Below are positions 1 to 55,703 of a stretch of 64,000 nt of DNA, in pieces (positions within the stretch are counted from its first letter, which is position 1; each line of letters begins with the position of its first letter). The notes below the pieces were generated by a model. It had not been told where the DNA came from and did not search any database. It worked only from the letters and a program-made list of their open reading frames with translations. Origin of the DNA: a virus; the IMG/VR virus record IMGVR_UViG_3300009082_000016, positions 1 to 64,000 of that record. One strand, given 5' to 3'. A program made the position numbers and the translations under genes.

Positions 1-818
1 TCCTTCTCGAGGAGCATCTCGGCGAGGATGTCGGAGGCCTCCTTGCGCTTCTTGAGCGCGTGGGCCGCCGCGAGGGCGCCGCCGGCGCCGAGCGCCGCCA
101 CGCCGCCGCGCTTGCCCCACTTCGTCGCCTTCTGGTGCTTGGCCGCGAACTCGGCGCCGCGGACCTTGAGCGCCCGGCCGACGCCCTTGGCGGACTCCCA
201 GATCGGGCCGCCCGCCTGCTTCGCGAGCTCCGCGTACTTGTACTCCAGGAGCTCGGAGACCTTCTCCTCGACCTTCTCCGGGACGACCTCGGCCGCGGCG
301 GCCGCGATGTCCTCGGGCGCGGCGTCCGGCGGGGCGGCCTCGGCGGCCTCCTCGACGGCTTCCTGCGCCGCGTCCTCGACGATGGCCTGCGCCTCCTCCT
401 CGGTCACGTCGGGGGCCTCGGCGCCTTCGCCCGGCTCGCCGCTGCCCTCGCCGCCGACCACCTCGGGCGCCGCCACCGCTTCGCCGGCCGCCTGCTCCTG
501 GGCGAACTTCTCCCAGGCCTCGCGGTAGCCCTCGAACATCGCCTCGCCCGAGAGCTTCGCGAGCGCGAGCTTCTCGAGCATCTCGTCCGACGCGCCCTCG
601 GCCGCCGCCTTCTCGATCATCGAGTCGGCGGTGTCGACCCCGACCTGCGCCTCGGCCCACTTCTCGCGGTAGGCGACGTAGGAGGCATTGATGGCCTCGT
701 CGGCGACCTGGCTGAGGTCGATGCCCTCCGCCGACGCCTGCTTCACGAAGGCGTCGACGCAAGCGGCTTCGGCGTCCGCAGCCTGGTCCTGTCCCAGGAT
801 CTTGTCCAGGTGACTCAT
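1..818 (-). CDS. Acidic Ala/Glu-rich head-associated protein (scaffold-like), runs off the window edge
   Basis: Not in the ORF track. ATG at 818 with GGAG/GAGG SD, open to position 1: MSHLDKILGQDQAADAEAACVDAFVKQASAEG... Has several K-x-A motifs and a Gly-rich hydrophobic stretch; lies downstream of the prohead protease. Confidence 0.7.
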   Translation of the reverse strand, partial: MSHLDKILGQDQAADAEAACVDAFVKQASAEGIDLSQVADEAINASYVAYREKWAEAQVGVDTADSMIEKAAAEGASDEMLEKLALAKLSGEAMFEGYREAWEKFAQEQAAGEAVAAPEVVGGEGSGEPGEGAEAPDVTEEEAQAIVEDAAQEAVEEAAEAAPPDAAPEDIAAAAAEVVPEKVEEKVSELLEYKYAELAKQAGGPIWESAKGVGRALKVRGAEFAAKHQKATKWGKRGGVAALGAGGALAAAHALKKRKEASDILAEMLLEK

Positions 819-916
819 CCTCAACTCCGTTTAGGCGGTATGACCCGCCCGCATCTTTTGCTGGTCATCCCTTGCTCGGGGCCGAGAACCGACCCCTGGG
901 ACACCGGCAGGAAAAC

Positions 917-1138
917 CTAGCGGCCGTAGAGCGCGGCGATCTCGGCCTCGGCGCGGGCACGCCCCGCGCGTCGGGAGGCCGAGATGACGTCGGACGCCCT
1001 CTTGTAGAAGGCAGCCCGATCGACGCCCTGTTCCGAAGCGGTCTTCTGGATCGCCTCGTCCGTCGGGGTCTCATCGGCCTCGAGCGTCGCCAGCTTCTCC
1101 ATCAGTTCCATTTCGGCGAATCGGGCACGCGCGTCCAT
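917..1138 (-). CDS. Small head-cluster protein with K-x-A motifs
   Basis: MDARARFAEMELMEKLAT...QKTASE...YKRASD; GGAG SD upstream of ATG 1138. Confidence 0.7.
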   Translation of the reverse strand: MDARARFAEMELMEKLATLEADETPTDEAIQKTASEQGVDRAAFYKRASDVISASRRAGRARAEAEIAALYGR

Positions 1139-1187: not shown

Positions 1188-2686
1188 GCCCCGGTCCCAG
1201 GAGGAAGGAACGCCGATCCGAAGTAGCGCCGCGTGAACGGGCTGACCAACGGAGTGCGTCCCTGCCTTCCAACCGTGTGCCACAAGTCGCTGTTGTTCTC
1301 GAAGATGCGGTCCGGGCCGCCGTCGAGAACACCCATGATGCGGTCGCGATAGGCCTTGTACCGGTCGTCACCCGACGAGATCTCCTCCTGCGCGGACGTC
1401 TGCTGCAGGTTGGACAGGCGGTACTCGGCCACCGGGCCGAGCACACTGCGCCGGCGCATGACGGCGAGCAGGCGGGCGGCGATCTCCGGCGTGAACAAGC
1501 GGTCGTCGACCACCGGCGCGTCGCGGCCGGCGGAGACGATCTCGTACTCCTTCGGCTTGAGCACGATGCCCAACCCGGAGAGCGTGGAGATCACGCGGTC
1601 GAAGTTCGGGTGCTCCTTCAGGTAGCGGAGGATGGGTTCCGGCATCTCGGGATCGTTCGCCGCGAGGATACTCACTGACTTCTCGTCAAACGGCGGCGTC
1701 GTCTCCTTGTCGATGTCGCCTTCCTTCCGCACGGTCGCGTTCTTCAGGGAGGCGGCCTTCGTCATCTGGAACGCCCGGTCGATGCCGTAGCCGACCGGAT
1801 CGATGCGCTGCCGGATGGACATGCGGGAGGGATCAACTGCTGCCAGCTTCTTGATCAGCTTCGCCACCTTGTCCGCTCCGATCACGACAATCGAGATGTC
1901 AAAGTACTTCGGGAAGTCGTTGCGGACACCAACCTGGGTGCCATCCGCCCGGATCTTCCCCATCTCCGTCTTGCACTCGGGGACGTAGTCGTCCCGGGTG
2001 ATCGACAGGCCGCGGATGCCGACCCCGTCCACCGCCTTGAGGCGGCGGTGCTCGGCGAGGATGGCGTCGGCCGGGCTGCGGTGAACACCGGGCTGGTAGT
2101 CCTTCCACGCCCGGCGATAGGTCGCCATATCGCCGGTGGTCGCCATGTCGAACGGAACCTTCGCGCCCATGCTGACGTCGAAGGGAGCGCCGCGCTGGAT
2201 GCGATCCAGGACCCACTTCACCTTGCTCTGCGCCGTGCGGGCGATGTCCAGGCGGATGATCAGCTCGACCCAGAACTGGTGCGGGTTCCAGGCGACCAGC
2301 TCGACGCGGCCGATGGCCTCGGCGGGGTTCTTGTTGACATGGTGCGGGAAGGCATGGGCGCCGTAGAACGTGGCGGTGCCGTAGTGGCACTCCTTCGCCA
2401 GCTCGCGGTCGACCGCCGGCTCCCCGGTCCATCCGGGCGGCAGGTGCGACAGGGCATCGAGCGACCAGTGGTCGCCGTTCCGGTTCTGGCCGTAGAACTC
2501 GCTGGCCGTGAGCGCGATGACATGCAGCCAGTGGGCCCCGTCCTCCCGCGCCAGGTTGGCGGCGAAGTTCTCGACCTCGGGCAGGACGCAGGCCAACTTC
2601 GTCAGGTTGCGCCCACGCGGCTCGAGCACCGTGATCCGCTGACCGCGGTCGTCGACGAACGGAACGTGGGCCCGCTTCTCGATCAT
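1184..2686 (-). CDS. Putative prohead maturation protease (HK97/assemblin-like serine protease)
   Basis: NRNGD, FPHHVNK (His), VELIIRLD and FDVSMG (Ser) motifs, late DISIV..GAD; ATG 2686 overlaps the upstream stop (ATGA). Confidence 0.7.
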   Translation of the reverse strand: MIEKRAHVPFVDDRGQRITVLEPRGRNLTKLACVLPEVENFAANLAREDGAHWLHVIALTASEFYGQNRNGDHWSLDALSHLPPGWTGEPAVDRELAKECHYGTATFYGAHAFPHHVNKNPAEAIGRVELVAWNPHQFWVELIIRLDIARTAQSKVKWVLDRIQRGAPFDVSMGAKVPFDMATTGDMATYRRAWKDYQPGVHRSPADAILAEHRRLKAVDGVGIRGLSITRDDYVPECKTEMGKIRADGTQVGVRNDFPKYFDISIVVIGADKVAKLIKKLAAVDPSRMSIRQRIDPVGYGIDRAFQMTKAASLKNATVRKEGDIDKETTPPFDEKSVSILAANDPEMPEPILRYLKEHPNFDRVISTLSGLGIVLKPKEYEIVSAGRDAPVVDDRLFTPEIAARLLAVMRRRSVLGPVAEYRLSNLQQTSAQEEISSGDDRYKAYRDRIMGVLDGGPDRIFENNSDLWHTVGRQGRTPLVSPFTRRYFGSAFLPPGTGA

Positions 2687-3498
2687 GGAACGGCCGAGAT
2701 GAGCCTCGGAAGGGCCCCGATGAGTCCGAGTTCGCGGCGCACGTCCTTCTCCACGCCGACGACGTCCTTGAGCGCCGTGGCATTGACCGTCGGGTACTCC
2801 GTCCACTGCCGAACGATCGAGCCGGCCACCAACGGGTCGGACGCCAGATTCGGCGCCACGCTCTGCAGCGTGCGGAACCGGGTCTTCACGATCTTCGGGT
2901 CCTCGTGATGCAGCGCGGGCGTCTCCCGCATCATCTGCGCGAAGTTGTTCCGTGCCTGGGACTTCTCCCGGATCTTCCGGATCAGGTGGAAGCCGCCATA
3001 CAGGCCAGCCGCGGCCGCGCCACCGAGTGCCAGCCGGGTGCCGAAGCCCGCCTTCTCGGCGATCCCCTTCGCGGCTCCACCTCCGCCACGCTCCAGCCGG
3101 CGCATCTTGTCGCGCATGAAGTCGATCATCTTGGACTGCTGCTCCACTTTCCCCGTGGCCCGCTGGGCGCGGTTCTGGAGAAGCTGGAACATGCGTTCGG
3201 GCGAAGGCGCAGGCGGGCGAACATGGGTGCGCGTGACCTTGGGCCGCGGCATCACCCCCTTCGGAAGCCCGGTCTCGATCCCCGGGAGGCCCATCTGCAC
3301 GCCCTTCGGGGCCTCGAACTTGAAGCCCTGCCGGGCCGCGACCTCGGGGGCCTTGGTCATCTTGAACTTGGCCCCCGGAGGGACCATCGATCGGTCGACA
3401 ACCATCTTGACCGCGTTGCCCTTGCGGTCGGGCATCGTGATCATGACCTTGTCGGCCTGCTTCACCATTCCGCCGCGAAGGATGTCGAGCCAGTCCAT
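2683..3498 (-). CDS. Hypothetical virion/internal protein (K-x-A leader, Gly-rich hydrophobic helix, Cys-free)
   Basis: MDWLDILRGGMVKQADK; LALGGAAAAGLYGGFHLI; coupled within the operon. Confidence 0.75.
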   Translation of the reverse strand: MDWLDILRGGMVKQADKVMITMPDRKGNAVKMVVDRSMVPPGAKFKMTKAPEVAARQGFKFEAPKGVQMGLPGIETGLPKGVMPRPKVTRTHVRPPAPSPERMFQLLQNRAQRATGKVEQQSKMIDFMRDKMRRLERGGGGAAKGIAEKAGFGTRLALGGAAAAGLYGGFHLIRKIREKSQARNNFAQMMRETPALHHEDPKIVKTRFRTLQSVAPNLASDPLVAGSIVRQWTEYPTVNATALKDVVGVEKDVRRELGLIGALPRLISAVP

Positions 3499-3499: not shown

Positions 3500-4399
3500 T
3501 CAGCCCCTCACCGCCCGCGAGACCTCGGCGAACTGGGAGGACAGCTCGCCGTGGATGCGGGTCTTGTCGACGAGCGCCGACGCGGCCTTCGCCAGCCGTT
3601 CGGTCTGGACGCGAAGCGGGTGGCCCGGCGTGACCTCGCGGCCCCACGGGATCGACTCGGGGTCGACCGCGGCACCGATCTTGCCGAGCGTCTCCTGCAC
3701 GACCTCGACGGTGGCCTCGTCCGGCTGGTTGCCCAGCATCGCGCGGGCAACCTCAGCAGCCGATGCGCCTTCCTTGATCGCCTGCTCGGCCGTTTTCACC
3801 AGCTCCCGCGCCCCCGTCTCCAGCTGGTAGCGCAGCGACGCCATGTCCGCGCCGGTCTTGTCCATCGCCCCCTTCACCATGTGGTACAGGCGGGCGTGGC
3901 CACCGGGGCTGCGCGAGCCCTGGGCCATCATCTGGGCGACCTTCTGAAGGCCCATCTTGTCGGGGAGGACGTCCTCCTCCGTAAGGGCCGCCTGCTTCAC
4001 GGCGCCGGGACGATCCTTGATGGGAGCGGTGAAGTAGTCGAGCGACGCCATGTCCTTCCTCCTGTCCGCGCCAGTCTTCATGGAGTCCGGGGACCCGAAC
4101 ACGGCCCCCAGGATGTCAAACACCCGCGCCGGGCCGCCCTCGAAGTGGACGTGCCTTTCAGGCCCCGGGCACTTGTCGTAGAGCTTGAGGTACGCCTGGG
4201 TGTTGGTCTGCTCGATCACGCGGGCGACGTGCGCCGGGTTGAGCAACTTGCCCTTGATGACCTCGAAAACGGACGACGTGAGGTCGGTTCCACCGTCGAC
4301 GTGCAAGGCCGACGCCCTGTCCGCCATTTCTGCGAGCATCTCGGGCGGTACGCGATGACCGCGATCTTCCGCCAGCAGACCGAGGTACCAGTCCATCAT
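3500..4399 (-). CDS. Hypothetical head-cluster protein with multiple K-x-A motifs
   Basis: GGAGG SD; VKQAAL, QKVAQM, VKTAEQ. Confidence 0.75.
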   Translation of the reverse strand: MMDWYLGLLAEDRGHRVPPEMLAEMADRASALHVDGGTDLTSSVFEVIKGKLLNPAHVARVIEQTNTQAYLKLYDKCPGPERHVHFEGGPARVFDILGAVFGSPDSMKTGADRRKDMASLDYFTAPIKDRPGAVKQAALTEEDVLPDKMGLQKVAQMMAQGSRSPGGHARLYHMVKGAMDKTGADMASLRYQLETGARELVKTAEQAIKEGASAAEVARAMLGNQPDEATVEVVQETLGKIGAAVDPESIPWGREVTPGHPLRVQTERLAKAASALVDKTRIHGELSSQFAEVSRAVRG

Positions 4400-4468: not shown

Positions 4469-5335
4469 ATGACGAACAACTTCCTGAAGCTCGAAGAAGT
4501 TGCCGATCACCTGGGGATGCCGGTCGACAAGGTGAAGGCGCTCGTCCAGACCCACCTCGTCCGGGTCTCCCGGGGCCTGGTGTCATTGGACGACGTGGCC
4601 ACCGTGCGGGAGGCCGAAAAAAGTCTGGGGGACCTCGGGTCGCTGGTCACCGAGGTCGCCGCCCTGAAGGCGGAGGTCCTGCGCCAGCGGCACATCATCC
4701 AGTTCGTGCTCCACGTCGCCGGGCTGCAGCAGCACCTCATCGAGGTCACGGACCCGCAGCTGATGCAGCTGCTAGAGATTGCCCGCATGGGCAGGGAAGC
4801 GATCACCCCCATCTCTGCTCGCACGATCGTCGGTCGCATCCAGCACATTGTCGAACTTTGCTTCTGCCTCACGGAGCGGGAGTTCCGGCGGATGGAGCGG
4901 CTGACCAAGGAGCCGCAGTGCTGGAAGGCCCTCATCTTCCTGGTCGAGAACATCGACGACGCGCTCGACAAGCGACCTGACTTGAAGCGACGTCCGGAGG
5001 TCCAGAAGGCCCGCTCCGAGCTGAACCTGGCCCGTCTGCATCTCGTCAACCTGGGGAAGTTCACGCTGGCGCTCAACGACCCGTTCTGCAACCCGAAGGA
5101 GCTGCTCGGCGAGATCTGCTTCCGGGCGGCGAAACTGGACTTGCTCACGCCGGCGTCGCGGGGATTCGACCCTGGGCAGGCGATCAGCGCGTTCGCAGAC
5201 GAGATCCGTCCGTCCACTCCGCCGGACGCGGAACCGACACGAAGATGTCCGGACGGGGGAACATCAAGCTCGCCGCCAGCAGGCAGTACAGACACGCATG
5301 GAGCGAGTCGTCCGGCTTCTCCGGATGGTGCATGA
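4469..5335 (+). CDS. N-terminal helix-turn-helix (excisionase/MerR-like) DNA-binding protein
   Basis: MTNNFLKLEEVADHLGMPVDKVKALV followed by a coiled coil; real start is inside ORF-track entry 2945..5335. Confidence 0.65.
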   Translation: MTNNFLKLEEVADHLGMPVDKVKALVQTHLVRVSRGLVSLDDVATVREAEKSLGDLGSLVTEVAALKAEVLRQRHIIQFVLHVAGLQQHLIEVTDPQLMQLLEIARMGREAITPISARTIVGRIQHIVELCFCLTEREFRRMERLTKEPQCWKALIFLVENIDDALDKRPDLKRRPEVQKARSELNLARLHLVNLGKFTLALNDPFCNPKELLGEICFRAAKLDLLTPASRGFDPGQAISAFADEIRPSTPPDAEPTRRCPDGGTSSSPPAGSTDTHGASRPASPDGA

Positions 5336-6869
5336 ACACCGTCTTCTGCCTCGCCGCGTTGAACTCCGTCGTGACATTGAGGAAGTCCTTGGCGTAGGGC
5401 TCGAACACGGGCCACGCCGGGAACTCGATGCGCCCCTGCTTGACGGCGTTGACGAACGCGGCCATCAGCTCGTCGCGCACGCCGATCCAAGACACCTTGA
5501 GCGGGTTCCAGTAGATGCGCCGTTTGGCCTCGGCCACGTAGCGCAGCTTGTGGTGCCGCTTCACGCCGAACGCCTCCTGGAGGATGTGGTTCTGGTGGAA
5601 GCCGATGCCGTAGTCGCCGAACGACACCTTCACGTTGAACATCCGGAACAGCTCGACCAGCAGCTTCGCCTGGGCCTCCGGCGACGACTCCATCCCCGTG
5701 AAGCGGTGAAGGTAGAAGATCTTGAACTTGTCGGGGCGGAGATAGGCGCCGAGAGCGACGACGGTCCACGAATGTTCCGCGGTCCCGTAGTCGGTCCCCA
5801 TGAAGATCTCGCGCTGGCCGGACCAGGCGATCGCCTCCCGCATCTGGTCCCTCGAGATGGTCCACTCCGGGTCGCAGCAGCGCACCAGCTCGGACTTCGT
5901 GAGCGGCCGGATGCCCGCCTCCCACGGGAGCGCCATGACCTCGTTGAAAAACTGCGGCCGGGGGTAGTTGGTGTACTTGTACAGGACCTTCTCGGTCCAC
6001 TGGTGGTCGGCGACCGACGGCGTCAGCATCTGCGGCAGCCGGTAACCGCGGAACTGCGCGTTCGACTGGCCGTCGACCCAGCCCCGCATCGGGTCGAAGC
6101 GGTCGATGATCTGGCCGCACTTGTCGCAGATGAGCCCCTTCTTCCCGAGGTGCTTCTCGCCGATGATGTTCCAGTGCCAGGTTGCGGGCTTGTTGCTCTC
6201 GCCGTGGCGCCGGCACGGGATAGCGAGCTCCGCCTGGCTCGAGATGTCCCAGTAGTACGTCAGCGTGTTGTCGAGCGACTTCGGCGTGCCGCTGTACGCC
6301 CGCCAGCCCGAGTAGGCCGGCAGGTCGGAGTGGGACAGCGTCTCCTCGAGGACCGGGACGTTCTCGATGAAGATGTCCTGCAGCTCGTCGACAGCGAGAT
6401 AGTCCGCCGGGACGCCGCGGACGCGGTCGGCCGAGCGGTTGGCGTACCGGAGCTCGATTGACGACTGGTTCCGCAGGACCTTCTGGTGGACGTTGTCCGG
6501 CAGCATCGGTTCCATCTCGGCCCGCAGGGAGGCTGAGTAGGCGAGCGGCTGCGCGATGCGGTCCTGGCTGAACTTCCGGGTCTGCGTCTGCGAGGGGCTG
6601 ACGTACAGCTCCTTGTAGTGCGGGATCATGCACGCCAGGGCCAGCATCTTGTTGCCCTGCGTTGTAGACTTCTCGCTCTGCCGGCCGATCATGATGACGA
6701 CCCGCGGGTCCGGCCGGTCCAGGATGGGGATGAGGTACTCGCGCTGTCTGAACGAGAACGGCAGGAGCTTCCCGCGAACCGGGATCTGGATGCGCCTCCG
6801 GATCCAGGTCGACACCCTCCACGGCAGCTTCGGCAGCGGAGGGGCCTCAGCCGGCTCGACGACCTTCAC
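5184..6869 (-). CDS. Terminase large subunit (lambda GpA-like)
   Basis: GRQSEKST Walker A variant, LAVDELQD Walker B, YSGTPK motif III, MGTDYG nuclease motif, KPDDSLHA; GTG start overlaps the upstream TGA. Confidence 0.9.
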   Translation of the reverse strand: MKVVEPAEAPPLPKLPWRVSTWIRRRIQIPVRGKLLPFSFRQREYLIPILDRPDPRVVIMIGRQSEKSTTQGNKMLALACMIPHYKELYVSPSQTQTRKFSQDRIAQPLAYSASLRAEMEPMLPDNVHQKVLRNQSSIELRYANRSADRVRGVPADYLAVDELQDIFIENVPVLEETLSHSDLPAYSGWRAYSGTPKSLDNTLTYYWDISSQAELAIPCRRHGESNKPATWHWNIIGEKHLGKKGLICDKCGQIIDRFDPMRGWVDGQSNAQFRGYRLPQMLTPSVADHQWTEKVLYKYTNYPRPQFFNEVMALPWEAGIRPLTKSELVRCCDPEWTISRDQMREAIAWSGQREIFMGTDYGTAEHSWTVVALGAYLRPDKFKIFYLHRFTGMESSPEAQAKLLVELFRMFNVKVSFGDYGIGFHQNHILQEAFGVKRHHKLRYVAEAKRRIYWNPLKVSWIGVRDELMAAFVNAVKQGRIEFPAWPVFEPYAKDFLNVTTEFNAARQKTVFMHHPEKPDDSLHACLYCLLAASLMFPRPDIFVSVPRPAEWTDGSRLRTR

Positions 6870-8201: not shown

Positions 8202-8230
8202 AGAATGCTCCCGAACTTCGGGAGAATCAA
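8202..8230 (-). promoter_or_regulatory. Promoter TTGATT-N17-CATTCT with a perfectly palindromic spacer
   Basis: Spacer CTCCCGAA-G-TTCGGGAG; ATG 8 nt after the -10. Confidence 0.55.
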
Positions 8231-46204: not shown

Positions 46205-48055
46205 ATGGATCCCCTGTTCGCTAAGTTGGCGATCTCCTCCCACATGCTGCGAGGAGGGAAACTGCTGAAGTCCAGGGGCAAGTCCACCCCGATGCGTCTG
46301 GCGACGCTCCTGAAGAAGATGGGTGCCACTGGGCCTGCGGCACCGTCGCCGATCACGAACACGCCGGGAGCCGGGAAAGTCACCGCACCTTCCAGCAAGG
46401 GGCTCGGCGGGGCCAGCTACAAACTGACCCCGCCGCCCCCTGTTGGAGGGATGCAGCTGCAACGCAATCTTTTTGCCAAGTCGCAGAAGCCGGGCGAGTT
46501 CCACGGCAATACGACCGTCGGGACCATGAATCCGGCGGGAACGTCGGCGCAGGACCTCGGTTTGCCACCCGTGGTCGCGAGCCTGCGAATCGGGCGCATC
46601 GACAAGTTGGGCGCGGACCCGGCGCCCCTTCCGCCTCCCCCGGTTCCGCCGGTCAGCGGCAACCTTCCGCCACCGCCTGCGCCGGCGGTGCCGAACTACA
46701 TCCCGCCCGCCCCGGACGTACCGACCGCCCCTCCGCCGTCGACGAGCACCCCCTCCGGGTTCTCCGACATCCCTGGCGGGGGTGGTGGCCAGGTCTGGAC
46801 TCCGCCGACCGATTGGACGACCCCCCGTCCGTGGGGCGACCAGAGCGGATGGCAGAAGACGAAGGACATCGGCCTTCAGGCTCTCGGTGGTGCCCTCAAC
46901 CCGTTCGGCATGGGCACGACCGGCATGCTGGCAACGGCCCCCCTGATGATGATCCCCGGTGTCGGCGCACCCCTCGCGGTCGGGATGGCTTTGGGCGGCG
47001 CCGTCTGGAACCCGATCAAGAACTACATCGACCGTACGCAAGGCGGAACGGCCATCGGTCAGATCCGCAAGGATATGCCCACGACCACAGGCGAAGCGCA
47101 GAACGCCACGGGCATCGAGTCGAAAGAGCAGTTCCTCGAGCGGTACGGCAACGACCTCCCGACTGCCATGGCGGACCCCGTGCTTCGGAGCCTCGCTGTC
47201 AACTTCGGCATCGCCCCCGGGGGCTTCTCCATCTCGAACGACATCAACAAGGGCGAATGGATGGAACGCGAGGGCGGCGGCGGGGAGTGGTCCGGTGAAG
47301 CGGCCGCCTGGCAACAGGCGATGGCGGAGAAGGCGATGCAGAATCCCGAGCAGTACCCGGAACTGGCAGCCGCACTGGCGCAGAGCCAGGAGGGGAAGAC
47401 CGCGGCGCTCGTCGTCCGCAACCGCATCGCGTTCCAGCGGGCGATGCCCAAGACGGCCAGCCCGATCGCTGCGGCCCTGCGTGCGGCCCAGCGGATGCAG
47501 GAGAAGAGGGCCGACATCGCGTGCCGTCTCGATCGCGACGCGGTGCAGGAGATCCTGAAGAAGGCGGGCTTGGAGAAGCAGTCTTTCGGTCTGGTCGGCA
47601 AGGGCCTTCTCGGCCTCGGCCTCGGTGCCTACGGCCTCGGATCGGCCATCACCCCCAGCGCCCAGGAAGCACCGGGAGTCGGCGGCCTCGGTCGATTCGG
47701 ACTCGGCCTGGCCGGCCTGTACGGCGGCTACAAGATGGCCGACAAGGTCGGACTCCCCGGCTGGCTCGGCGCCATGGTCGGCGCCGGCGTCCTGCCCGGC
47801 CTCGTCGGCAGCGTGACCAGCGGCGGCCAGGGGGGCTTGATGGGTCCTGGTGGCCTCACGGGTCTCACGCAGAACCCGCTGCTCACCGGCGCCCTGGGCT
47901 ACTGGCTTGCCAACAAGTACCCGTCGATTGGCAACGCCCTGCCCGGCGGCAAGTGGGGCGGCGCGGCTCTCGGCGCTCTCCTCGGTCCCAGCCTCATGGG
48001 CGGGATGGGCAACATGATGGGCATGGGCGGCGGGATGCGCGGCCCGTACGGCTGA
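46205..48055 (+). CDS. Pro/Gly-rich putative ejection protein with glycine-zipper helices
   Basis: AKLAI, PKTAS, EKRAD, EKQSF; long GxxxG-rich C-terminus. Confidence 0.75.
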   Translation: MDPLFAKLAISSHMLRGGKLLKSRGKSTPMRLATLLKKMGATGPAAPSPITNTPGAGKVTAPSSKGLGGASYKLTPPPPVGGMQLQRNLFAKSQKPGEFHGNTTVGTMNPAGTSAQDLGLPPVVASLRIGRIDKLGADPAPLPPPPVPPVSGNLPPPPAPAVPNYIPPAPDVPTAPPPSTSTPSGFSDIPGGGGGQVWTPPTDWTTPRPWGDQSGWQKTKDIGLQALGGALNPFGMGTTGMLATAPLMMIPGVGAPLAVGMALGGAVWNPIKNYIDRTQGGTAIGQIRKDMPTTTGEAQNATGIESKEQFLERYGNDLPTAMADPVLRSLAVNFGIAPGGFSISNDINKGEWMEREGGGGEWSGEAAAWQQAMAEKAMQNPEQYPELAAALAQSQEGKTAALVVRNRIAFQRAMPKTASPIAAALRAAQRMQEKRADIACRLDRDAVQEILKKAGLEKQSFGLVGKGLLGLGLGAYGLGSAITPSAQEAPGVGGLGRFGLGLAGLYGGYKMADKVGLPGWLGAMVGAGVLPGLVGSVTSGGQGGLMGPGGLTGLTQNPLLTGALGYWLANKYPSIGNALPGGKWGGAALGALLGPSLMGGMGNMMGMGGGMRGPYG

Positions 48056-48089
48056 TTCCCTCTTCTTTTTTCACCCGCCAACCCTCCAG

Positions 48090-48119: not shown

Positions 48120-48126
48120 GAGGGCC

Positions 48127-48849
48127 ATGAGCGGCACTTCGACCCAGGATCTCCAGCTCTGGAACCAGTGGAACCAGGGCGGCCGCAAGCGCGGAGACCT
48201 CGAACCGCTGCTCGACAACCTCGATCCGCTCGTTCACAACGCCGTCAACCAGTACGCCGGGAAGGTGAACATCCCGTCGGAGGCCATCCAGTCGAAGGCG
48301 GAAGACCTCGCGATCAAGGGGATCAAGTCCTTCAACCCCGGGAAGGCCCAGCTGTCCACGCACGTCGCCTGGCAGCTGCGCGGCCTCAACCGCTTCGTGA
48401 CGACCTACCAGAACCCGGCCCGCATCCCGCAGCACCAGACCCACAAGATCCAGGCGCTGATCACGACGCGGGACCGGATGACCTCCGCGATGGGGCGGCC
48501 GCCGACCGACTACGCGCTGGCGAGAAAGCTGCACTGGACGCCGCGGCAGGTGGGCTCGCTCCAGAAGGGGCTCTCCCGCCGAGTGCTCGACCCGGAGATG
48601 TTCAAGCTGCGCGACCCGCGCTCGTTCTCGCCGTCCCGCTTCAAGGAGGTCATGCAGCTGTTGCCCTCCGAGCTCGGGCCGCGGGAGAAGTTCGTGTTCA
48701 AAGCTACGTACGGGATCGGCCGCCAGAAACCGCTGTCGGCGTCCCAGATGGCAAAAAAGTTGCGGACGTCGCAGGCGACGATCTCCCGCACGCGAAAGCG
48801 GGTCGCCGGCATCATCGCCCGCTACATGAACGTCGGAGGTGAACGATGA
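48127..48849 (+). CDS. Sigma70-family (group 3, SigB/F/FliA-like) sigma factor
   Basis: Region 2 (PLVHNAVNQY..IKGIKSFNPGKAQLSTHVAWQLR..ARIP), region 3 (MGRPPTDYALARKL), region 4 HTH (LGPREKFVF..YG..SQMAKKL..SQATISR). Confidence 0.85.
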   Translation: MSGTSTQDLQLWNQWNQGGRKRGDLEPLLDNLDPLVHNAVNQYAGKVNIPSEAIQSKAEDLAIKGIKSFNPGKAQLSTHVAWQLRGLNRFVTTYQNPARIPQHQTHKIQALITTRDRMTSAMGRPPTDYALARKLHWTPRQVGSLQKGLSRRVLDPEMFKLRDPRSFSPSRFKEVMQLLPSELGPREKFVFKATYGIGRQKPLSASQMAKKLRTSQATISRTRKRVAGIIARYMNVGGER

Positions 48850-49481
48850 ACCTGGTGCGCCAAGTGGAGATCGCGTCCTTCTGTGGAGCGATGGAGAAGT
48901 GGGCGCAGGACCAGGGGTTCAGCGGCACGCTCGCGGACCTCATGAAGCCGGTCGTGTACGGGATCGGTGGCTACGCCGCGTCCCGCGCCCTCGGCGGCGA
49001 GCGTGCGACGGGCATCCCGGACTATCTGCTCGGCCCCGCGCTCGGTGTCGGCGCCGCCATGCCAGCTATGGGCGCCATCGGCCGCAGCATCAGCAACTAC
49101 CGGGCCCGCAAGCAGATGGCCCATCTCGATGCCCAGCAGCAAGCCCAGCTCGAACAGGCACTCGCCCGGGAGCAGGAACTCCAGGCCCAGATGCAGGCCC
49201 CGTCCCAGGACATGCTGAACCAGCTGGCCGCCTACCAGATGGGCGTGCCGCCGGACGCGATGATGGGCCAGAAGATGGGCCAGCTGCGCGTCCCGGCCCA
49301 GCAAGCTGACCAGATCGCGACCAACGCGCAGCAGCAGTACATGCAGGGCCAGCAGCAGCAGATGCAACAGCAGATGCAGCAGGCCGCGATCGCCCAGCAG
49401 ATCAAGGGCCAGTTCCGCGGCCTCCAGCAGAACCAGGCGCGTCAGGCGCGTCAGCAGCCGCAGCAGGGAGCCGGCCGGTGA
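48846..49481 (+). CDS. Putative ejection protein: K-x-A leader, Gly-rich helices, Gln-rich tail
   Basis: ASFCGAMEKWAQ; GGAGGTG SD. Confidence 0.7.
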   Translation: MNLVRQVEIASFCGAMEKWAQDQGFSGTLADLMKPVVYGIGGYAASRALGGERATGIPDYLLGPALGVGAAMPAMGAIGRSISNYRARKQMAHLDAQQQAQLEQALAREQELQAQMQAPSQDMLNQLAAYQMGVPPDAMMGQKMGQLRVPAQQADQIATNAQQQYMQGQQQQMQQQMQQAAIAQQIKGQFRGLQQNQARQARQQPQQGAGR

Positions 49482-49672: not shown

Positions 49673-50616
49673 ACTTCGAGATCACCAGGGTTCGAACCGA
49701 TCTCCTGTTGTACGCCCAGGACGTTGCCACCCTGCTGACGCTCTACACGCACATCCGGATCGACCGCGCGATGTCCGGCGGCGGCCCGTGGTCACCGCTC
49801 ACGGACACGACCGCAAAGCCGGCGTCCACCCGCTGCCGGAAGGACGGGCCGTACGCCATCAGCGGGAAGTACCTGAACCTCACGCTGCCGGACGGGACGC
49901 TGTTCAGCCACATCTTCACGACGCCGGACCCGGTGTCGGCGACGGACGCGATGACGGAGCTCAACGGGGCGTCCGCCCAGCTCGACTGCGTGGTCGACGG
50001 GGACACGCTCGTGCTCCGCACGCTCGACACGGGCACCGACGCCTGCCTGAAGGTGGATGGCGGGGACGCCTGCGTGAACCTGGGTGTCGCGCTCAACGAC
50101 ACCGCGTTCGGCCTCGCCGGCGACGTCCTGCTGGTCGCGGGCCAGGTGATCTACCCGTTCACCGACGAGAACGGCGATTCGGACTGGTCGTACCGCTACC
50201 GCTTCATCAACGCTGCGCCGCCGCGGGAGTCGGAGCCGCTGTTCTCGTACCCAGGTACGGAACTCAGCCTGGACCTCGACCTGCTCGCCGTCGGTCACGC
50301 CCACGCGGTCGACACCGACGGCCGGGCTGCAGCGGGCGCCATCGCTCATGTCGGCAACCGCTACGTCCCGCCCTCCGTCTCCGGAAGGCTGGTGATCGGC
50401 GGCCAGTCGAAGGTGATCGACCGACACGGCGACGTCTGGTTCCCGCTGGTGCGGGGGGCGCAGATCGAGTTCTGGATCGCCGGGACCCCGCTCCACCGCA
50501 TCATCGAGGTGCCCGACGCGGCCGAGTTCGACATGCTCGACCCCAGCCTGGTACGCGACGATCCGTGGGGCATCGTCGTGCCCCCCTACACCGGACTCCC
50601 GAGGACGACGCCATGA
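49669..50616 (+). CDS. Putative virion structural protein
   Basis: Acidic, beta-rich; FTDENGDSDWSYRYRF. Confidence 0.65.
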   Translation: MNFEITRVRTDLLLYAQDVATLLTLYTHIRIDRAMSGGGPWSPLTDTTAKPASTRCRKDGPYAISGKYLNLTLPDGTLFSHIFTTPDPVSATDAMTELNGASAQLDCVVDGDTLVLRTLDTGTDACLKVDGGDACVNLGVALNDTAFGLAGDVLLVAGQVIYPFTDENGDSDWSYRYRFINAAPPRESEPLFSYPGTELSLDLDLLAVGHAHAVDTDGRAAAGAIAHVGNRYVPPSVSGRLVIGGQSKVIDRHGDVWFPLVRGAQIEFWIAGTPLHRIIEVPDAAEFDMLDPSLVRDDPWGIVVPPYTGLPRTTP

Positions 50617-51470
50617 CACTCGAACAGGTGAGGTGGGAGGCCTTCCAGAAGGAGGCCCAGTGGGCCTTGTTGGGAAGGCTCCTGGGAGGGGCGGGGAAAC
50701 TGATGGCCCGGGCAGGAAGCCAAGGGGGGCTGCTGGCCCGGATGGGCGGCACCGCGGCCAAAGCCGGCACCCGAATGGTGGAGTCCTCTCCGCTGCGGAA
50801 TCTCCTTCAGAACGCCCCACGAGTCCTGCAAGGGAAACCCTTCCTCTCCCCGCGAAACATGGCGGCCGGCGAAACCATGATCGACCCCCTTGGGCGCATG
50901 AGAACAGGCCAGGCTCTCCCGCTCTGGTTCAAACGCCGCCCCCTTCCGCAGATCGCCCCCCTTCGGCCCAGCTATGAAGGCGTGACAAGGGCGACGATCA
51001 TCAAGCCCCAGACGCCCGTGAACCCGATCGGGCCGACGGCCTACCAACCTCCCACACCGGCCCAGGTCAACCCGCTAGGCAGGACAGTCGGCAGGACGGC
51101 AGTGGGTCCCATGCCTAGCGCCCCCGGGGTAACTCAGTCCAGCATCCCCCAGGTGACGCAAGCCGGGATCCTTCCGCCCGCTCCCACGGTGAGCACGATT
51201 CCTGTGACCCCGCCGATTCCCGGGACGGCCGCGTACAGTCGGAACATGTTCAGCTCGGGCGGCGCCGCCATTCGGGCAGGAACCCTTCAACGATCGATGA
51301 ACAACGTCCTGGGCCCGACCGGAACGGCTTTTGCTCGGGCACCCAACCCCATCGATCAGACCTTCCGCAGCCTTTCCAGTTCGCCCTTGCTCTCCAAGTT
51401 CAACTCGCTCATCGAGCAGGTGGAACAGGCCACCTTCCTCGAGGCGATCATGCGTCAGAACTCCAGATAG
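50613..51470 (+). CDS. Basic Pro/Gly-rich Cys-free protein with K-x-A leader
   Basis: MTLEQVRWEAFQKEAQWALLGRLLGG; real start is inside ORF-track entry 49788..51470. Confidence 0.65.
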   Translation: MTLEQVRWEAFQKEAQWALLGRLLGGAGKLMARAGSQGGLLARMGGTAAKAGTRMVESSPLRNLLQNAPRVLQGKPFLSPRNMAAGETMIDPLGRMRTGQALPLWFKRRPLPQIAPLRPSYEGVTRATIIKPQTPVNPIGPTAYQPPTPAQVNPLGRTVGRTAVGPMPSAPGVTQSSIPQVTQAGILPPAPTVSTIPVTPPIPGTAAYSRNMFSSGGAAIRAGTLQRSMNNVLGPTGTAFARAPNPIDQTFRSLSSSPLLSKFNSLIEQVEQATFLEAIMRQNSR

Positions 51471-51550: not shown

Positions 51551-52018
51551 CTAGCGGAGCCAAACCGGGGGCTTGACCGTCTCGCCGACGGTGGTGATGC
51601 TCCGAAGGGCCTGCGCCTGTTCGGGCGGCAGCACCTTCAGACGGGCAGCAAGTCGCTTCGCCGCAGTAGGCAGCGCCGGCGGAAGAACACCCGCGGCCCG
51701 AGAGAAGAAGCTGCCCATCGGCAGCGGGCCCGCGTACTTCAGGAACTCCTCGACGAAGGTGTTGAACTCGACGGCGGCTTCCTTGTGCGTGTGCTGCCCC
51801 TTCTTCCGACGTTCCGAAGCAGTGCGGGCCAAGGCCTTGGCCAACCGAGCCGCCCCTCGCCCCCGCCCGACGGACTTGAAGGCCTTCGGTGTAACATCCG
51901 TGGCAACGACATCCCAGGGGATATCGTCAAAGAGTCCAGTCAGCGGGCTGCCCCGCCGGAGACGCCCCACGCCGTGCAGGCGGCCGATTCCCTTTCCAAC
52001 GGCTCGAAGTTCACCCAT
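51551..52018 (-). CDS. Basic Cys-free protein with K-x-A motifs
   Basis: HKEAAVEFNTFVEEFLKYAG. Confidence 0.6.
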   Translation of the reverse strand: MGELRAVGKGIGRLHGVGRLRRGSPLTGLFDDIPWDVVATDVTPKAFKSVGRGRGAARLAKALARTASERRKKGQHTHKEAAVEFNTFVEEFLKYAGPLPMGSFFSRAAGVLPPALPTAAKRLAARLKVLPPEQAQALRSITTVGETVKPPVWLR

Positions 52019-52020: not shown

Positions 52021-52725
52021 CTATTGTTCTACCTCAGGTTGGCTAGCCGCCTGCTTCACCCCACTCGCCAAATCCCACTTGTCTCCCACCCGCTTGGTGA
52101 ACTTGAACAGCGTCGGCTTTCGCTTGATCCCGTGACCGACAGCCTTCTCCTTGTTGATGAGGAGCTTGCCGTCCTGCTTGGTGACCTCGTACGGTTCCTG
52201 CTTCTCTCCCCTGAAGGTGCGCGGACCCGTACACGACTTCAGCTCACCGTGCTGCCTGCTGTGGAAATGCCACGGAACGGACCCGACGGGGAACCCCCTA
52301 GCAGCTAGCTTCAGACTGCCGCTGCGTACCTGCTGCTTGAGGTCGCCAAGGCTGATCTGGCGGATCTTACCGATCGTGATGTGGTGGTGCTTGGCACTGC
52401 GTAGGACGTCCCGCTTCGTACCGAAGTTGAGGTAGACCTTGTGCTCGTCGAACTTGGACGGGTCGTGCCAGTCCATCTTGTCGACCACGTAGGCCCGGCG
52501 CGAGTTCTTGTTGGGGCCGACGAACACGTCGAGTGGATCCTTGTCCGCTCCCATCGTTCCCGGGAACGAGCCGTAGTTGTGCGTGTATCGTTCCCGCTTG
52601 TTGATGAACAACGTCCCGATGGGCCGCTCGATGTTGATATTCAGCCCGTGAATACGGGTCTTCCACCGGGTGACGTCACCTTCCCAGGCTGTCTTGAGGA
52701 ATGCCGACTTCTCGGCTAGCCCCCG
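52021..52725 (-). CDS. Inorganic pyrophosphatase-like (inPase) domain, probably reached by -1 frameshift from the upstream gene
   Basis: HGLNINIERPIG...YGSFPGTMGADKDPLDVFVGP...FDEHKVYL; the domain N-terminus lies upstream of the first in-frame start codon (TTG 52611). Confidence 0.75.
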   Translation of the reverse strand, partial: RGLAEKSAFLKTAWEGDVTRWKTRIHGLNINIERPIGTLFINKRERYTHNYGSFPGTMGADKDPLDVFVGPNKNSRRAYVVDKMDWHDPSKFDEHKVYLNFGTKRDVLRSAKHHHITIGKIRQISLGDLKQQVRSGSLKLAARGFPVGSVPWHFHSRQHGELKSCTGPRTFRGEKQEPYEVTKQDGKLLINKEKAVGHGIKRKPTLFKFTKRVGDKWDLASGVKQAASQPEVEQ

Positions 52726-55703
52726 AAAGGGCTTCCGCCGCCCTGTTGCATCGCCATCTCCTGCATCGCCTGCTGCTCGAGCTGGCGACGGCGGCGATTG
52801 CGGGCACGCTGCGCGAGCGCGTAGCCGGTGACACCACCGGCGACGCCGCCGAGCGCGGACATCTCCGGCATCGGGGTCGCGCCGTAGAGCTTCTGCAGGA
52901 GCGGCAGGGCCGCGGCGCCGGCGAGGGCGCCCCCGCCCGCGGTCAGCATCGGGTGACGCTCGGCGAACCCCATCTGCTCCTGGGCCCGCTTGAGGAAGGC
53001 ACCGTGCTTCGCCTTCCCCCGCGCCCGCTGGTAGGACTGCGACACCGCCGACGTTCCGAGCATCCCGCCGAGACCGCCGGCGAGGCCGGACGCGGCACCC
53101 GTGAACACAGGGTGACGACCGGCGAAGGAGAGGTGCTTGCGGATCTTCTCCTTCTCCTTCTCCGTCATCCCTTCCTCGAGCGAGTGACGCAGGACCGAGC
53201 CCGCCGCTCCACCGCCGATGGGGCCTCCCGCCCAGCCGCCGAGGAATCCGGTGGCCATCGGATGCCGCTCGACCCAGCCCGCCTCCCGGGCCTGCTTCTC
53301 GCGCGTGAAGTCGGCGAACGAGCCCTGCTTGTAGTAGGACTCCGGCGACTTCTTGCCGAACAGCGCCTTCGCGCCCCAGAGACCCGCCAACGCGCCACCG
53401 CCGATCAGGCCGGCGCGAGGAAGGGCCTTCATGAGGGGCTCACCGACGCTCTTGCCCACGAGACGGGGCCGCCTGGCGATGTACCCCGGGGTCTTCTTGA
53501 TCTCCGCGTCGATCGCGGCGCGAGCCGCATCGCGGGCCTGCTGGTCCACGATTTTCGCAGGCATCCCACGAGCGTCGCGCATCGCACCCGTCGGCAGGGC
53601 CTCACGCTCCGCCCACAGGTTCTGCAGTCGCTCCAGCTCACGGGCCTCCAGTCCCCTCTGGGCCTTCCGCCCGACGTGCGCCCCCACGCCCAGGGCCGCC
53701 GCACCGGGGAGGATGCCGATCTCGCGGTCCCGGATCTCCCTCAGGGAGTTCGGCGCCGGAGTGCCGTACTGCGCGTACTTGTACTTCGCCTCCTGGAACG
53801 ACCGCTCCTGCAGGTTGCCCAGGATGGACTCGAAGTCCTCGAGTCCGGCCGTACGCGTGGTCGGGGAGGGGCCGATGCTTCCGCGGGTCGCGTCTCCGGT
53901 GCTGGGGCTGGCGAACGTGGTCGGCTGGCCCGTGACACCGGCGCTCGAACCACCACCCATCGTCATGGGGACGGAGGTGGCTCCACCGCCGGCCGCGCTG
54001 GCAACACCACCGCTGGGCGAACCGACGGCGACCTTCGTGAGCATCGCCCGCTTCTCCGCCATCTGCGGATCGAACGCCGCCATGCGCCGCATGCCGGGCG
54101 CGTACGGGTCCATGCCGCGAGAGATCGGCGACGGGTGCCCACCACCCATCCGGCTGTGACTGAGCTCGTGGCCCAGCACGCCCGAATCCCCACCGCGGGA
54201 GATCGACGCCGGGCCACCGCCGCGCATCCGGCGGTAGATCTCGCCCGCGCCGAGGCCGAGGCCGCCACCGGCCGCCGCGCCGCCCGCGATCGCCAACCCG
54301 CGGCGCTTCTTGTCCTTCATGCCCCGCGTCGCCAGCGCCGTACCGGCGCCGCCGGCCACCGCGCCGCCGAGACCGCCGATGACCCGCGGGTCGGAGAAGA
54401 ACGAACCGATGTCGCTGCTGCTGAGCGCCTGCTTCTTCATGGTCATCCTCGCCTGCTTCTGGAACGACGCCTGGACCTTCATGCCGCCACCACCGGGGAC
54501 GGCAGCCTTGGCCACTTCCGTGGGGGCCGGAGCGGCCGGAGGCGGAGCGGCAGCCACCTGCGGGGCAGCCGCAGGCCCGGCGGCCGCAGGAGCCGGGACG
54601 GGCGCAGCAGCCGGGCCCATCACCATCGACTCGTAGTTCGGGGCCCCCTCCGCGTTCAGCGCGAGCATCTGCTGCAACGCCGGCGTGCCGAGCTGCTGAC
54701 CACCCTGCTGGAGGGCCTGCGCGGCCGCCTGCGGACCGAACAGGGCCGTCATCTCCTGGAGGGCGGCCTGGGACGGCCCACCTTGAGCCGCGGCGTTCGC
54801 GGTCTCGGGCCCCATCATTGCCTGCAGGCCCGCCGCACGGCGCACGGCCTCCAGGGACTGGGTCTCGTCCGTCAGCCCGGCCGCCGGAGCTTCTCCCCTG
54901 GCCACAGGGCCGCCGAAGCCGCCCTGATCGAACCGGCTGGGCATGTCCATGGGCGAACCGCTGGCGTAGCCGCCGCCCATGCCCTGGATGGCGGCCGCCA
55001 GGCCCGGGTCCATGCCCGTCGGGGCCTGCGGCGCGTTCATCGCGCCCATCAGGCCCTCGAGCTGGCCCCGCTTCTCCCGCGGGATGCCCAGGATTTCCTC
55101 CACCACCGAACGGGCCTGCGCTTCCTTGACCGCCCGCGGGGAGAACTCCCCGAGCTTCTGCTTCCTGAGGTTCCGGGGAGCCGTCGGGTTCTGTCCGGTT
55201 CGTTCCACGTGGTGCTCCTTGAGGCCGGGAAAGCGTGCATAGACCTTCGAGCGTACCGTGGCCCGCTCCGCAGGCGTACCGTGCTGCGACACCCTGGCCA
55301 AGGCGTTGCGGGCATGCGGTGCGTCGTGGATCGGGTACTTCTCCTGCTTGGGAAGCGCGAAGTTCTTCGGCTTGATCTTCTCCCGACCGGCAGCCGTCAG
55401 GTTTGCAGCTTCCTTCTGCATGGCTCCGAGCGTACCACGGGTCAGCGCGTCCTGGGAAGCCCGCCACAGGTCGTAGTTCAGGGAGCCGGTCTTGAGCGAC
55501 TTGTACTCGCTCTTCGGCTTGTCGAACTTCGCCTTCGCCTCGCGCTTCCCCTGGGGGGTGCCGAAGCCCTTGGGCGCCTGCCCCTTGGCGTGCGCCTGCT
55601 GCGTGGCGACGGCAAAAGCGACCGACTTCGCCTTCTTCGGTGGGTACGTCTCCTTCATCGAGGGAAGGAGGTGCATAGCCCGGTCGTGAATGGCCTTCGG
55701 CAC
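52716..55703 (-). CDS. 995-aa Cys-free modular putative internal/ejection protein (DUF6582-like domain, glycine zippers, RHP repeats)
   Basis: AGGAG SD plus GTG 55703; FALPKQEKYPIHDAPHARNALARV; many K-x-A motifs. Confidence 0.8.
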   Translation of the reverse strand: MPKAIHDRAMHLLPSMKETYPPKKAKSVAFAVATQQAHAKGQAPKGFGTPQGKREAKAKFDKPKSEYKSLKTGSLNYDLWRASQDALTRGTLGAMQKEAANLTAAGREKIKPKNFALPKQEKYPIHDAPHARNALARVSQHGTPAERATVRSKVYARFPGLKEHHVERTGQNPTAPRNLRKQKLGEFSPRAVKEAQARSVVEEILGIPREKRGQLEGLMGAMNAPQAPTGMDPGLAAAIQGMGGGYASGSPMDMPSRFDQGGFGGPVARGEAPAAGLTDETQSLEAVRRAAGLQAMMGPETANAAAQGGPSQAALQEMTALFGPQAAAQALQQGGQQLGTPALQQMLALNAEGAPNYESMVMGPAAAPVPAPAAAGPAAAPQVAAAPPPAAPAPTEVAKAAVPGGGGMKVQASFQKQARMTMKKQALSSSDIGSFFSDPRVIGGLGGAVAGGAGTALATRGMKDKKRRGLAIAGGAAAGGGLGLGAGEIYRRMRGGGPASISRGGDSGVLGHELSHSRMGGGHPSPISRGMDPYAPGMRRMAAFDPQMAEKRAMLTKVAVGSPSGGVASAAGGGATSVPMTMGGGSSAGVTGQPTTFASPSTGDATRGSIGPSPTTRTAGLEDFESILGNLQERSFQEAKYKYAQYGTPAPNSLREIRDREIGILPGAAALGVGAHVGRKAQRGLEARELERLQNLWAEREALPTGAMRDARGMPAKIVDQQARDAARAAIDAEIKKTPGYIARRPRLVGKSVGEPLMKALPRAGLIGGGALAGLWGAKALFGKKSPESYYKQGSFADFTREKQAREAGWVERHPMATGFLGGWAGGPIGGGAAGSVLRHSLEEGMTEKEKEKIRKHLSFAGRHPVFTGAASGLAGGLGGMLGTSAVSQSYQRARGKAKHGAFLKRAQEQMGFAERHPMLTAGGGALAGAAALPLLQKLYGATPMPEMSALGGVAGGVTGYALAQRARNRRRRQLEQQAMQEMAMQQGGGSPFGG

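Follow-up and report, generated by a model that had tools for sequence, protein, structure and literature searches.

K-x-A as the probable cleavage code of a prohead protease in a large phage clade

We analysed the first 64 kb (hereafter, the window) of a 172,723-bp phage record from the IMG/VR database (IMGVR_UViG_3300009082_000016; 66% guanine plus cytosine, GC), in which many proteins of the head module carry the motif lysine-any residue-alanine (K-x-A), and in which that module also encodes a 500-residue prohead serine protease at positions 1184-2686. K-x-A is probably the core recognition and cleavage site of this protease. The features established directly are the enrichment of K-x-A, its strandedness relative to the mirror motif A-x-K, the conservation of its positions, its confinement to particular gene classes, the fold of the protease and that enzyme's conserved His, Ser and His residues; from these sequence patterns we infer that K-x-A is cut, and that the product of 1184-2686 cuts it. 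Across a large clade of relatives, K-x-A behaves, as judged by counting and alignment, as a constrained linear motif in the proteins encoded around the protease.

Genes were called from the strong GC signal at third codon positions (GC3, ~0.9 in true frames), giving 214 genes, with a few models corrected by hand, and K-x-A counts were compared with expectations from composition and with A-x-K as a control of the same composition. Genome-wide enrichment was mild (285 versus 236.5 expected, z = 3.2, rank 8 among 400 a-x-b pairs; 220 A-x-K), and the excess was local to the head module around the terminase. This module, a minus-strand block extending from 165.8 kb of the genome across the contig ends to 26.2 kb of the window, contained 94 K-x-A motifs versus 62.3 expected or, once the large terminase (TerL) and RNA polymerase (RNAP) were set aside, 80 versus 47.9 (Poisson P = 1.4e-5) together with 40 A-x-K. 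Counts elsewhere were 54 versus 39.9 at 26-52 kb, which is a weak excess beside 47 A-x-K, 17 versus 19.0 at 52-68 kb and 125 versus 119.6 in the remaining ~100 kb of the genome. Two genes were individually significant by count (8227-10254, P = 2e-5; 24948-26153, P = 0.004; Table 1), and 21273-21977, 46205-48055 and 52716-55703 were not. Within the first 20 residues, K-x-A occurred in 10 of 29 head-module genes versus 18 of 184 others (Fisher P = 0.0012).

These counts refine the initial annotation of the window, which had described K-x-A as pervasive in head and cargo proteins and whose five long quoted strings were all located where it had placed them. Compared by gene class against composition, the observation stands for the head module at 1-26 kb and is absent as an excess from the rest of the genome, but the enrichment is uneven, and at 46-56 kb, where counts lie near expectation, only individual suggestive sites are left. 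The short leaders of 10-20 residues ending in K-x-A were confirmed by the distribution of N-terminal sites. The impression that the motif is rarer in tail and replication proteins was right only in part: TerL carries one K-x-A versus 2.2 expected and is depleted across its family, and three proteins of 1100-1470 residues at 55.7-67.7 kb carry 2 versus 6.6, but the RNAP of the window is at expectation (13 versus 12.2) with no leader-type site.

We fetched 80 loci of relatives, analysed the interval between the protease and the major capsid protein (MCP) in 66 of them and based family counts on unique sequences. Gene order was kept in the 80 loci (the 675-residue protein encoded here at 8227-10254, terminase, the homologue of 3500-4399, protease, three or four small genes, MCP), and the synteny of the head module holds in the 66 loci and in the cultured Salmonella phage Arash and Vibrio phage D69. 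Transcription here likewise runs from TerL through the protease and small K-x-A-rich genes to the MCP. The small genes of the protease-to-MCP interval diverge too far for alignment and were therefore tested without orthology: the interval held 1775 K-x-A versus 801 expected and 649 A-x-K, with K-x-A outnumbering A-x-K in 65 of the 66 loci and no locus showing fewer. Among 1600 residue pairs (spacings 0-3) scored in 225 unique interval proteins, K-x-A ranked first (z = 33), ahead of E-K (z = 18.7; Glu at the presumed P4), K-x-x-S (z = 18.4; Ser at the presumed P1') and the best generic helix pair (z = 14), and pairs of the x-E type were missing from the top 15, save those flanking the Lys. Sites had a median spacing of 21 residues and the consensus (L/F/I/M)-(E/V/D)-K-(T/L/I/V)-A-(S/A/E), with Ser 3.5-fold enriched directly after the Ala (23-24% of sites) and Ala next. 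The Phe that the initial annotation had placed ahead of the motif thus generalizes to a hydrophobic L, F, I or M two positions before the Lys, usually followed by E, V or D.

Families that could be aligned differed strongly in their K-x-A content. Enrichment was highest in the 3500-4399 family (412 versus 108 expected, 3.80×; 86 A-x-K; 40 unique sequences), the 166578-167111 family (45 versus 13, 3.42×; 5 A-x-K) and the 675-residue family (406 versus 124.5, 3.26×; 99 A-x-K; 32 unique sequences), followed by the protease family (578 versus 265, 2.18×; 233 A-x-K), the MCP family (126 versus 97.5, 1.29×; 60 A-x-K) and the 7306-8193 family (64 versus 56, 1.15×; 56 A-x-K), while open reading frames downstream of the capsid gene in relatives reached only 1.25×. 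TerL, which served as a non-virion control, was depleted (71 versus 118.7, 0.60×; 148 A-x-K; 60 unique sequences from L003-L082), as might be expected if chance cleavage of a prohead-docking protein is selected against; if the protease cuts at K-x-A, this apparent avoidance suggests that selection acts on bystander proteins. Alignments revealed two positionally conserved K-x-A columns in the protease, nine in the 3500-4399 family and eleven in the 675-residue family, with no conserved K-x-A column in TerL and no A-x-K column in the 3500-4399 family.

Sites kept their positions in proteins of 27-68% identity and at 44-66% GC (metagenomic loci, 48-66%). An artefact of composition or GC was considered and ruled out, since the code persists over this GC range and the mirror motif is flat. 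Among cultured relatives, Arash (L083, 53% GC) carries 8 K-x-A versus 3.0 expected in gp223, 10 versus 3.0 in gp220 (the positional counterpart of the 3500-4399 protein), the site LTKQA↓A at residue 30 of its protease gp222 and LVKEA↓G at residue 27 of its MCP gp226, where arrows here and below mark the presumed scissile bond. In D69 (44% GC), whose protease is ~27% identical, a 269-residue neighbour has ten (M/L)-(E/V/T)-K-x-A-(S/A) sites, and K-x-A is again the top pair.

In its predicted structure (AlphaFold/AF2; predicted local distance difference test, pLDDT, 80), the protease comprises a folded domain at ~33-286 and a helical C-terminal domain at 331-500, with disordered segments at 1-31 and 287-330 (pLDDT below 50). 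Residues 45-285, compared with 48,161 PDB chains using VIA-align, gave as top three matches the varicella-zoster virus (VZV) protease (1vzv; Z = 9.8, root-mean-square deviation 2.9 over 116 residues), T4 gp21 (5jbl; Z = 8.9, 130 residues aligned) and the human cytomegalovirus (HCMV) protease (Z = 7.0); the next, unrelated match scored Z = 5.2. Searches of BFVD returned 114 matches at E ≤ 1e-3, many of them annotated as prohead protease, with gp19 of Bacillus phage G second-best (E = 7e-13). At the sequence level there was no Pfam-A match at E ≤ 0.01 (including Peptidase_S21, S77, S78 and U35), no PHROG match at E ≤ 0.001 and nothing from a PDB profile search. The modelled enzyme has the assemblin/T4 gp21 fold and belongs to a sequence family distinct from the curated ones, which comprises at least 1583 homologous 50%-identity clusters and is encoded by at least 560 IMG/VR contigs, many of 170-195 kb. 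His116, Ser172 (in DVSMG) and His213 are invariant in 31 protease sequences of 29-55% identity and are the predicted catalytic residues, arranged along the chain as in the assemblin triad (His-Ser-His). The fold and the invariant Ser172 bear out the initial call of a prohead protease with a VSMG serine.

Both conserved columns of the protease flank its folded domain. At the K30 column, 78 of 80 members of the family, all from other phages, have K-x-A, and the family consensus is FEKTA↓S; at the K310 column, 73 of 80 have it despite flanks of variable length. Most relatives have a third conserved K-x-A near the C-terminus, similar in place to the assemblin M site, which is missing from this phage. 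Many protease homologues (P0008, P0014, P0035, P0055 and others) reach 900-1700 residues through one to three insertions of about 290-800 residues. Natural polyprotein fusions were considered for these long forms and rejected because the insertions interrupt the protease domain and no cargo is fused; they are probably inteins.

Under the proposed mechanism, the full site would read ψ-(E/V/D)-K-(T/L/I/V)-A, where ψ is L, F, I or M, followed by S, A, E, Q, G or D. As the prohead matures, the protease would free itself at K30-x-A32 and at the K310-x-A312 linker before its C-terminal helical domain, strip N-terminal leaders of 5-20 residues from head and internal proteins, part modules at linkers and cut the scaffold-like proteins encoded between protease and capsid gene into ~20-residue pieces able to exit the shell. 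We place the scissile bond after the Ala (P3 Lys, P1 Ala, small P1'), by analogy, because T4, phiKZ/SPN3US and assemblin share a P3-x-P1 grammar and because Ser and Ala are enriched at the next position. Processing at K-x-A is supported by the models, in which sites of the protease and of the 675-residue protein fall in disordered linkers, and by sites at short leaders and at boundaries where orthologues differ in domain content. The initial annotation had read the K-x-A-bearing genes as polyproteins, which goes too far for most of them: most sites look like leader removal, domain separation or scaffold degradation.

Candidate substrates surround the protease in the head module (Table 1). The 675-residue protein, the most K-x-A-enriched gene in the window, opens with the leader MKPLFVAPQIVKTA↓Q. 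Its six orthologues (46-68% identity) carry 9-15 K-x-A each versus ~3 expected and 1-3 A-x-K, and in this comparison the Lys is invariant at 8 of 13 K-x-A sites but at only 2 of the 19 lysines elsewhere; the residue between Lys and Ala is free to vary. Its model falls below pLDDT 50 at 1-14, 133-165 and 223-236, where K12, K158 and K225 are found; searches of Pfam, PHROG, BFVD, PDB and Atlas gave only uncharacterised homologues and generic helical bundles at Z below 8. The scaffold-like 3500-4399 protein (Atlas model pLDDT 0.56) belongs to a family found in 51 loci, and an Atlas search with it gave nothing usable. For 2683-3498, K-x-A falls at residue 21 of the Arash counterpart (gp221) and at residue 18 of the D69 counterpart, and the family as a whole shows no enrichment (0.96×).

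Table 1. Features of the head module and of the 46-56 kb region. Positions refer to the window unless marked as genome; counts are K-x-A observed versus expected.
Feature	Position	Strand	Details
Prohead serine protease, 500 residues	1184..2686	-	predicted from fold, conserved residues and gene position
Protease site K30-L-A32	2591..2599	-	C-terminal edge of the disordered segment 1-31; putative site of autoprocessing
Protease site K310-A-A312, then S313	1751..1759	-	hypervariable inter-domain linker; candidate assemblin R-site analogue
675-residue multi-domain head-module protein	8227..10254	-	13 versus 3.1; A-x-K 2; fold unmatched
299-residue loosely structured scaffold-like protein	3500..4399	-	5 sites; two genes upstream of the protease
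271-residue protein	2683..3498	-	leader MDWLDILRGGMVKQA↓D
64-residue protein	917..1111	-	3 versus 0.6; just downstream of the protease
339-residue K-x-A-rich scaffold-like gene, 5' part	1..824 + genome 172428-172623	-	9 sites; rebuilt across the terminal overlap
401-residue protein, DUF6582-like segment	24948..26153	-	8 versus 2.5; begins MSRPKQA↓D
225-residue protein	12108..12785	-	low-complexity N-terminal part; AVKYA↓A and LRKWA↓S (K86, K96); DUF192 at 120-221
Gene with leader ending in K-x-A at residues 12-15	21273..21977	-	...PMMKQA↓D; 1 versus 1.6
Gene with leader ending in K-x-A at residues 12-15	21974..23032	-	...PRWQKRA↓G
TerL	5184..6869	-	phrog_675 match, 2.5e-53
MCP	genome 168812-169921 (L002:8815-9921)	-	family profile matches gp27 of Bacillus phage G, PDB 6wkk, E = 1.3e-6
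616-residue Gly/Pro-rich protein	46205..48055	+	leader MDPLFAKLA↓I; 6 versus 3.5; four sites 18 residues apart at 398-452
Gly/Pro-rich protein	48846..49481	+	leader ...GAMEKWA↓Q; 1 versus 0.8
Gly/Pro-rich protein	50613..51470	+	leader MTLEQVRWEAFQKEA↓Q; 1 versus 0.8
InPase-domain protein	52021..52611	-	Pfam InPase, 1.4e-15; GVKQA↓A at K186
995-residue mosaic protein	52716..55703	-	DUF6582, 1.3e-5; QKEA↓A directly before the DUF6582 module; 11 versus 9.5

The 64-residue protein at 917-1111 has the sites MELMEKLA↓T, IQKTA↓S and FYKRA↓S, with position weight matrix (PWM) scores of 5.0 and 7.5, and its gene lies within the protease-to-capsid interval, which is 2.2-fold enriched over the 66 loci. 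The top PWM score, 9.8, belongs to LEKLA↓L in the 339-residue gene, which spans the contig ends, so that the window opens partway through that module. In the 401-residue protein, whose DUF6582 match is weak, the conserved sites are K5, K103, K241, K275 and K315; in four orthologues an additional N-terminal domain reaches up to the K-x-A-D of the K5 site, K241/A243 and K315/A317 do not vary, and a length-variable linker follows the K315 site. The leader sites at 21273-23032, whose counts are not above expectation, only weakly suggest that these two genes encode substrates. Searches of the 80 loci with tblastn found no orthologues of the fastest-evolving genes, namely the 339-residue gene, 917-1111, 170869, 171640, 12108-12785 or 21273-23032.

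Several points weigh against cleavage at K-x-A or limit what the data say about it. Only 3 of the 13 sites in the 675-residue protein fall in its low-confidence segments, and the model places the invariant K38, K259, K289 and K587 in helices or strands, where conservation may have structural reasons and some sites are perhaps never cut. The K-x-A site of the MCP sits in an N-terminal segment that is uniformly conserved, which makes its conservation uninformative. A flank-aware PWM trained on other phages gave 11 hits versus 2.8 at score ≥ 4, and the flanking positions carry little information beyond the K-x-A core. The triad is predicted from conservation and residue order. Shared ancestry inflates the cross-phage P-values, although each sequence supplies its own mirror-motif control. 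The searchable literature yielded no mature N-terminus for any member of the clade: the Arash and phage G papers contain no cleavage or N-terminal data, and the Arash paper mentions no protease (PMC10585845). In the phage G capsid entry 6wkk, the gp27 chain retains its N-terminal segment, which has no bearing on processing.

Could K-x-A instead serve for docking or capsid targeting, with the scaffold, the inside of the capsid or the C-terminal domain of the protease as its binding partner, and be either left uncleaved or cleaved incidentally? Leaders as short as MDKTA↓A, MSRPKQA↓D and MIEKRA↓H retain the motif with almost nothing to remove, and the motif is reiterated in scaffold-like proteins, as multivalent binding motifs are. 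Capsid-targeting leaders of T4 combine the roles of targeting and cleavage. We nevertheless consider docking alone unlikely, because the best-conserved sites flank the protease domain in disordered linkers of variable length, where assemblin autoprocessing sites sit (PMC4498786), and because the layout of P3-x-P1 with a small P1' matches known protease codes; depletion in TerL fits avoided cutting at least as well as avoided binding.

Targeting and cleavage may coexist in the same motif. A tentative extension is that K-x-A serves as a dual-purpose address tag, with a five-residue ψ-(E/D)-K-x-A leader being enough for loading into the prohead and for release. If so, adding the tag would let the clade package swappable cargo, much as encapsulins load cargo through peptides, and sequence alone would reveal which proteins uncultured phages package. 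Among the cargo candidates would be the Gly/Pro-rich products of 46-51 kb, the InPase module and the DUF6582 module, and perhaps proteins that partner the head-module RNAP. RNAP genes adjoin the head module here (12785-18973) and in Arash, whose virion preparations contain the RNAP beta and beta' subunits among their most abundant proteins (PMC10585845).

Cleavage at K-x-A by another enzyme, from the host or from a second phage protease, we regard as quite improbable. The link between the 1184-2686 protease and the motif consists of co-occurrence and of sites in the enzyme's own linkers, which leaves room for such an enzyme. The motif nonetheless tracks the protease family across very different presumed hosts, including those of Salmonella and Vibrio phages (44-66% GC), and the densest substrates are immediate gene neighbours of the protease. 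No other protease domain was found in the head-module proteins scanned, the search for a second phage protease not being exhaustive.

It is very unlikely that K-x-A is a structural or compositional by-product of helical scaffold proteins rich in Lys, Ala and Glu. Such proteins are indeed helical and rich in these residues here, the helix-type patterns ExxxK and KxxE are also elevated, and some conserved sites lie inside helices, but the mirror motif is unenriched both in relatives (649 versus 1775) and in this phage (40 versus 80), and K-x-A exceeds the best helix pair by z = 33 to 14. The Lys and Ala are also invariant while the residue between them varies, and sites occur in disordered linkers and at extreme N-termini. 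The by-product reading fails against shuffled sequences as well as against the mirror motif. Least probable of all is a modified lysine in a SUMO-like ψ-K-x consensus for ubiquitin-like conjugation, which the hydrophobic or acidic residue before the invariant Lys recalls (ψ-K-x-E) but in which neither the invariant Ala nor the small residue behind it plays a part, and whose ThiF (PF00899)/E1 homologue was not found in any of the four complete K-x-A-dense relatives (L005, L006, L018, L055) by a search that hit 12 of 14 control genomes, so that ubiquitin-like tagging is ruled out as a general explanation.

Outside the head module, leader-type sites on three Gly/Pro-rich genes and one conserved boundary before a DUF6582 module weakly suggest that the 46-56 kb proteins are substrates of the protease; with counts at or near expectation, they are candidates and not demonstrated substrates. 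The leaders of the 616- and 675-residue proteins start alike (MDPLFAKLA, 46205-46231; MKPLFVAPQIVKTA, 10213-10254) and may be of a shared type. A sigma-like gene in the same stretch (48127-48849, plus strand) has no leader-type K-x-A site. P0160 likewise has K-x-A-A ahead of its DUF6582 module, and in P0163 nothing but an N-terminal MDKTA↓A stands before this module. The InPase domain of 52021-52611 is of a type that occurs in virion and polyvalent proteins, and the 52021-55703 proteins have PHROG matches to minor head, virion structural and polyvalent proteins, whereas the Gly/Pro-rich proteins of 46205-51470 had no family matches in Pfam or PHROG. Two genes with lower GC3 (50613-51470 on the plus strand and 51551-52018 on the minus strand; 0.76-0.78 versus ~0.9) were missed by the GC3-based caller and added by hand; the products of both are Gly/Pro/Ala-rich.

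The record ends in a 100-bp direct repeat that resembles a circular-assembly overlap. Almost all remaining head-module proteins lack a Pfam or PHROG match. Scans of viral contigs with single proteins recovered no close relatives, and a metagenome scan returned short or distant contigs only. Window positions 26-46 kb form a replication block that encodes a helicase, PolA and a UvsX-like recombinase, with intein or Hint/LAGLIDADG insertions in the helicase and PolA genes (26234-28093 and 32821-35910). Across the genome, C-x-x-C is 4.6-fold above expectation (84 versus 18.4, z = 15), an excess that points to many zinc-ribbon or zinc-finger-like proteins encoded by the phage.

Should the protease prove to cut at K-x-A, sequence would be enough to predict mature virion proteins, fragments of the scaffold and candidate injected cargo for the more than 560 IMG/VR contigs and ~1,600 protein clusters that carry this family, in which almost no head genes match annotated families. 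The idea is testable in culture, in Salmonella phage Arash and in Vibrio phages D69, D148 and D181, partly with existing mass-spectrometry data.

Among known systems, assemblin (MEROPS S21; VZV 1vzv, HCMV and pseudorabies virus pUL26N) is the best structural match and has the same catalytic His...Ser...His order. Its cleavage consensus is (V/L/I)-x-A↓S, and K-x-A sites would likewise have Ala at P1 and often Ser at P1', but the position equivalent to P3 is an invariant Lys here and the hydrophobic residue lies two positions further upstream. Assemblin, with its Ser-His-His triad, is organized as protease, cleavable linker (R site), C-terminal scaffold domain and M site (PMC4498786). The same layout is predicted here, with an N-terminal protease, a linker carrying the K310 site and a C-terminal helical, scaffold-like domain. 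The two are not similar in sequence (no Pfam match), and this phage would have many substrates with many sites per substrate versus two sites.

T4 gp21 (MEROPS S77, PDB 5jbl) shares the fold of the 1184-2686 protease (Z = 8.9). It cleaves after Glu at (L/I)-x-E, its substrates being gp22, gp23, gp24 and internal proteins with capsid-targeting leaders. The T4 logic is alike in its leaders ending in a site, a scaffold core cut small, self-processing and a P3-x-P1 code, and short N-terminal K-x-A leaders of the T4 type are present on head-module genes and further at 46205, 48846 and 50613. Unlike gp21, the protease described here would read K-x-A, has no Pfam S77 match and is a 500-residue protein with an extra C-terminal helical domain. 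PhiKZ gp175 and SPN3US gp245 cut after Glu at A-x-E (S/A/G-x-E), as verified by mass spectrometry, and process themselves and many head and ejection proteins, including propeptides with several motifs (PMC10052503). Many head proteins with a short motif, and RNAP genes in or near the head module, recall phiKZ; in contrast to the phiKZ and SPN3US motif, K-x-A is known here from sequence alone and does not end in Glu. Bacillus phage G is a distant relation whose gp19 protease and gp27 MCP match the counterparts in this clade, and it has R-V-A at the position of the MCP K-x-A. The MCP profile match to gp27 (6wkk) links the ~170-195 kb clade to the phage G lineage.

We found no K-x-A (KXA) prohead-protease code in the searchable literature. 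If cleavage at K-x-A is correct, the family would form a third specificity class of assemblin-fold capsid proteases, beside those that cut after Glu (T4, phiKZ) and those that cut at hydrophobic-x-Ala↓Ser (herpesviruses), and its P1 Ala and P1' Ser would place it between the phage and herpesvirus enzymes. The enzyme fold and the logic of maturation are known from these systems; the K-x-A specificity would be new and would belong to a very large uncharacterised family.

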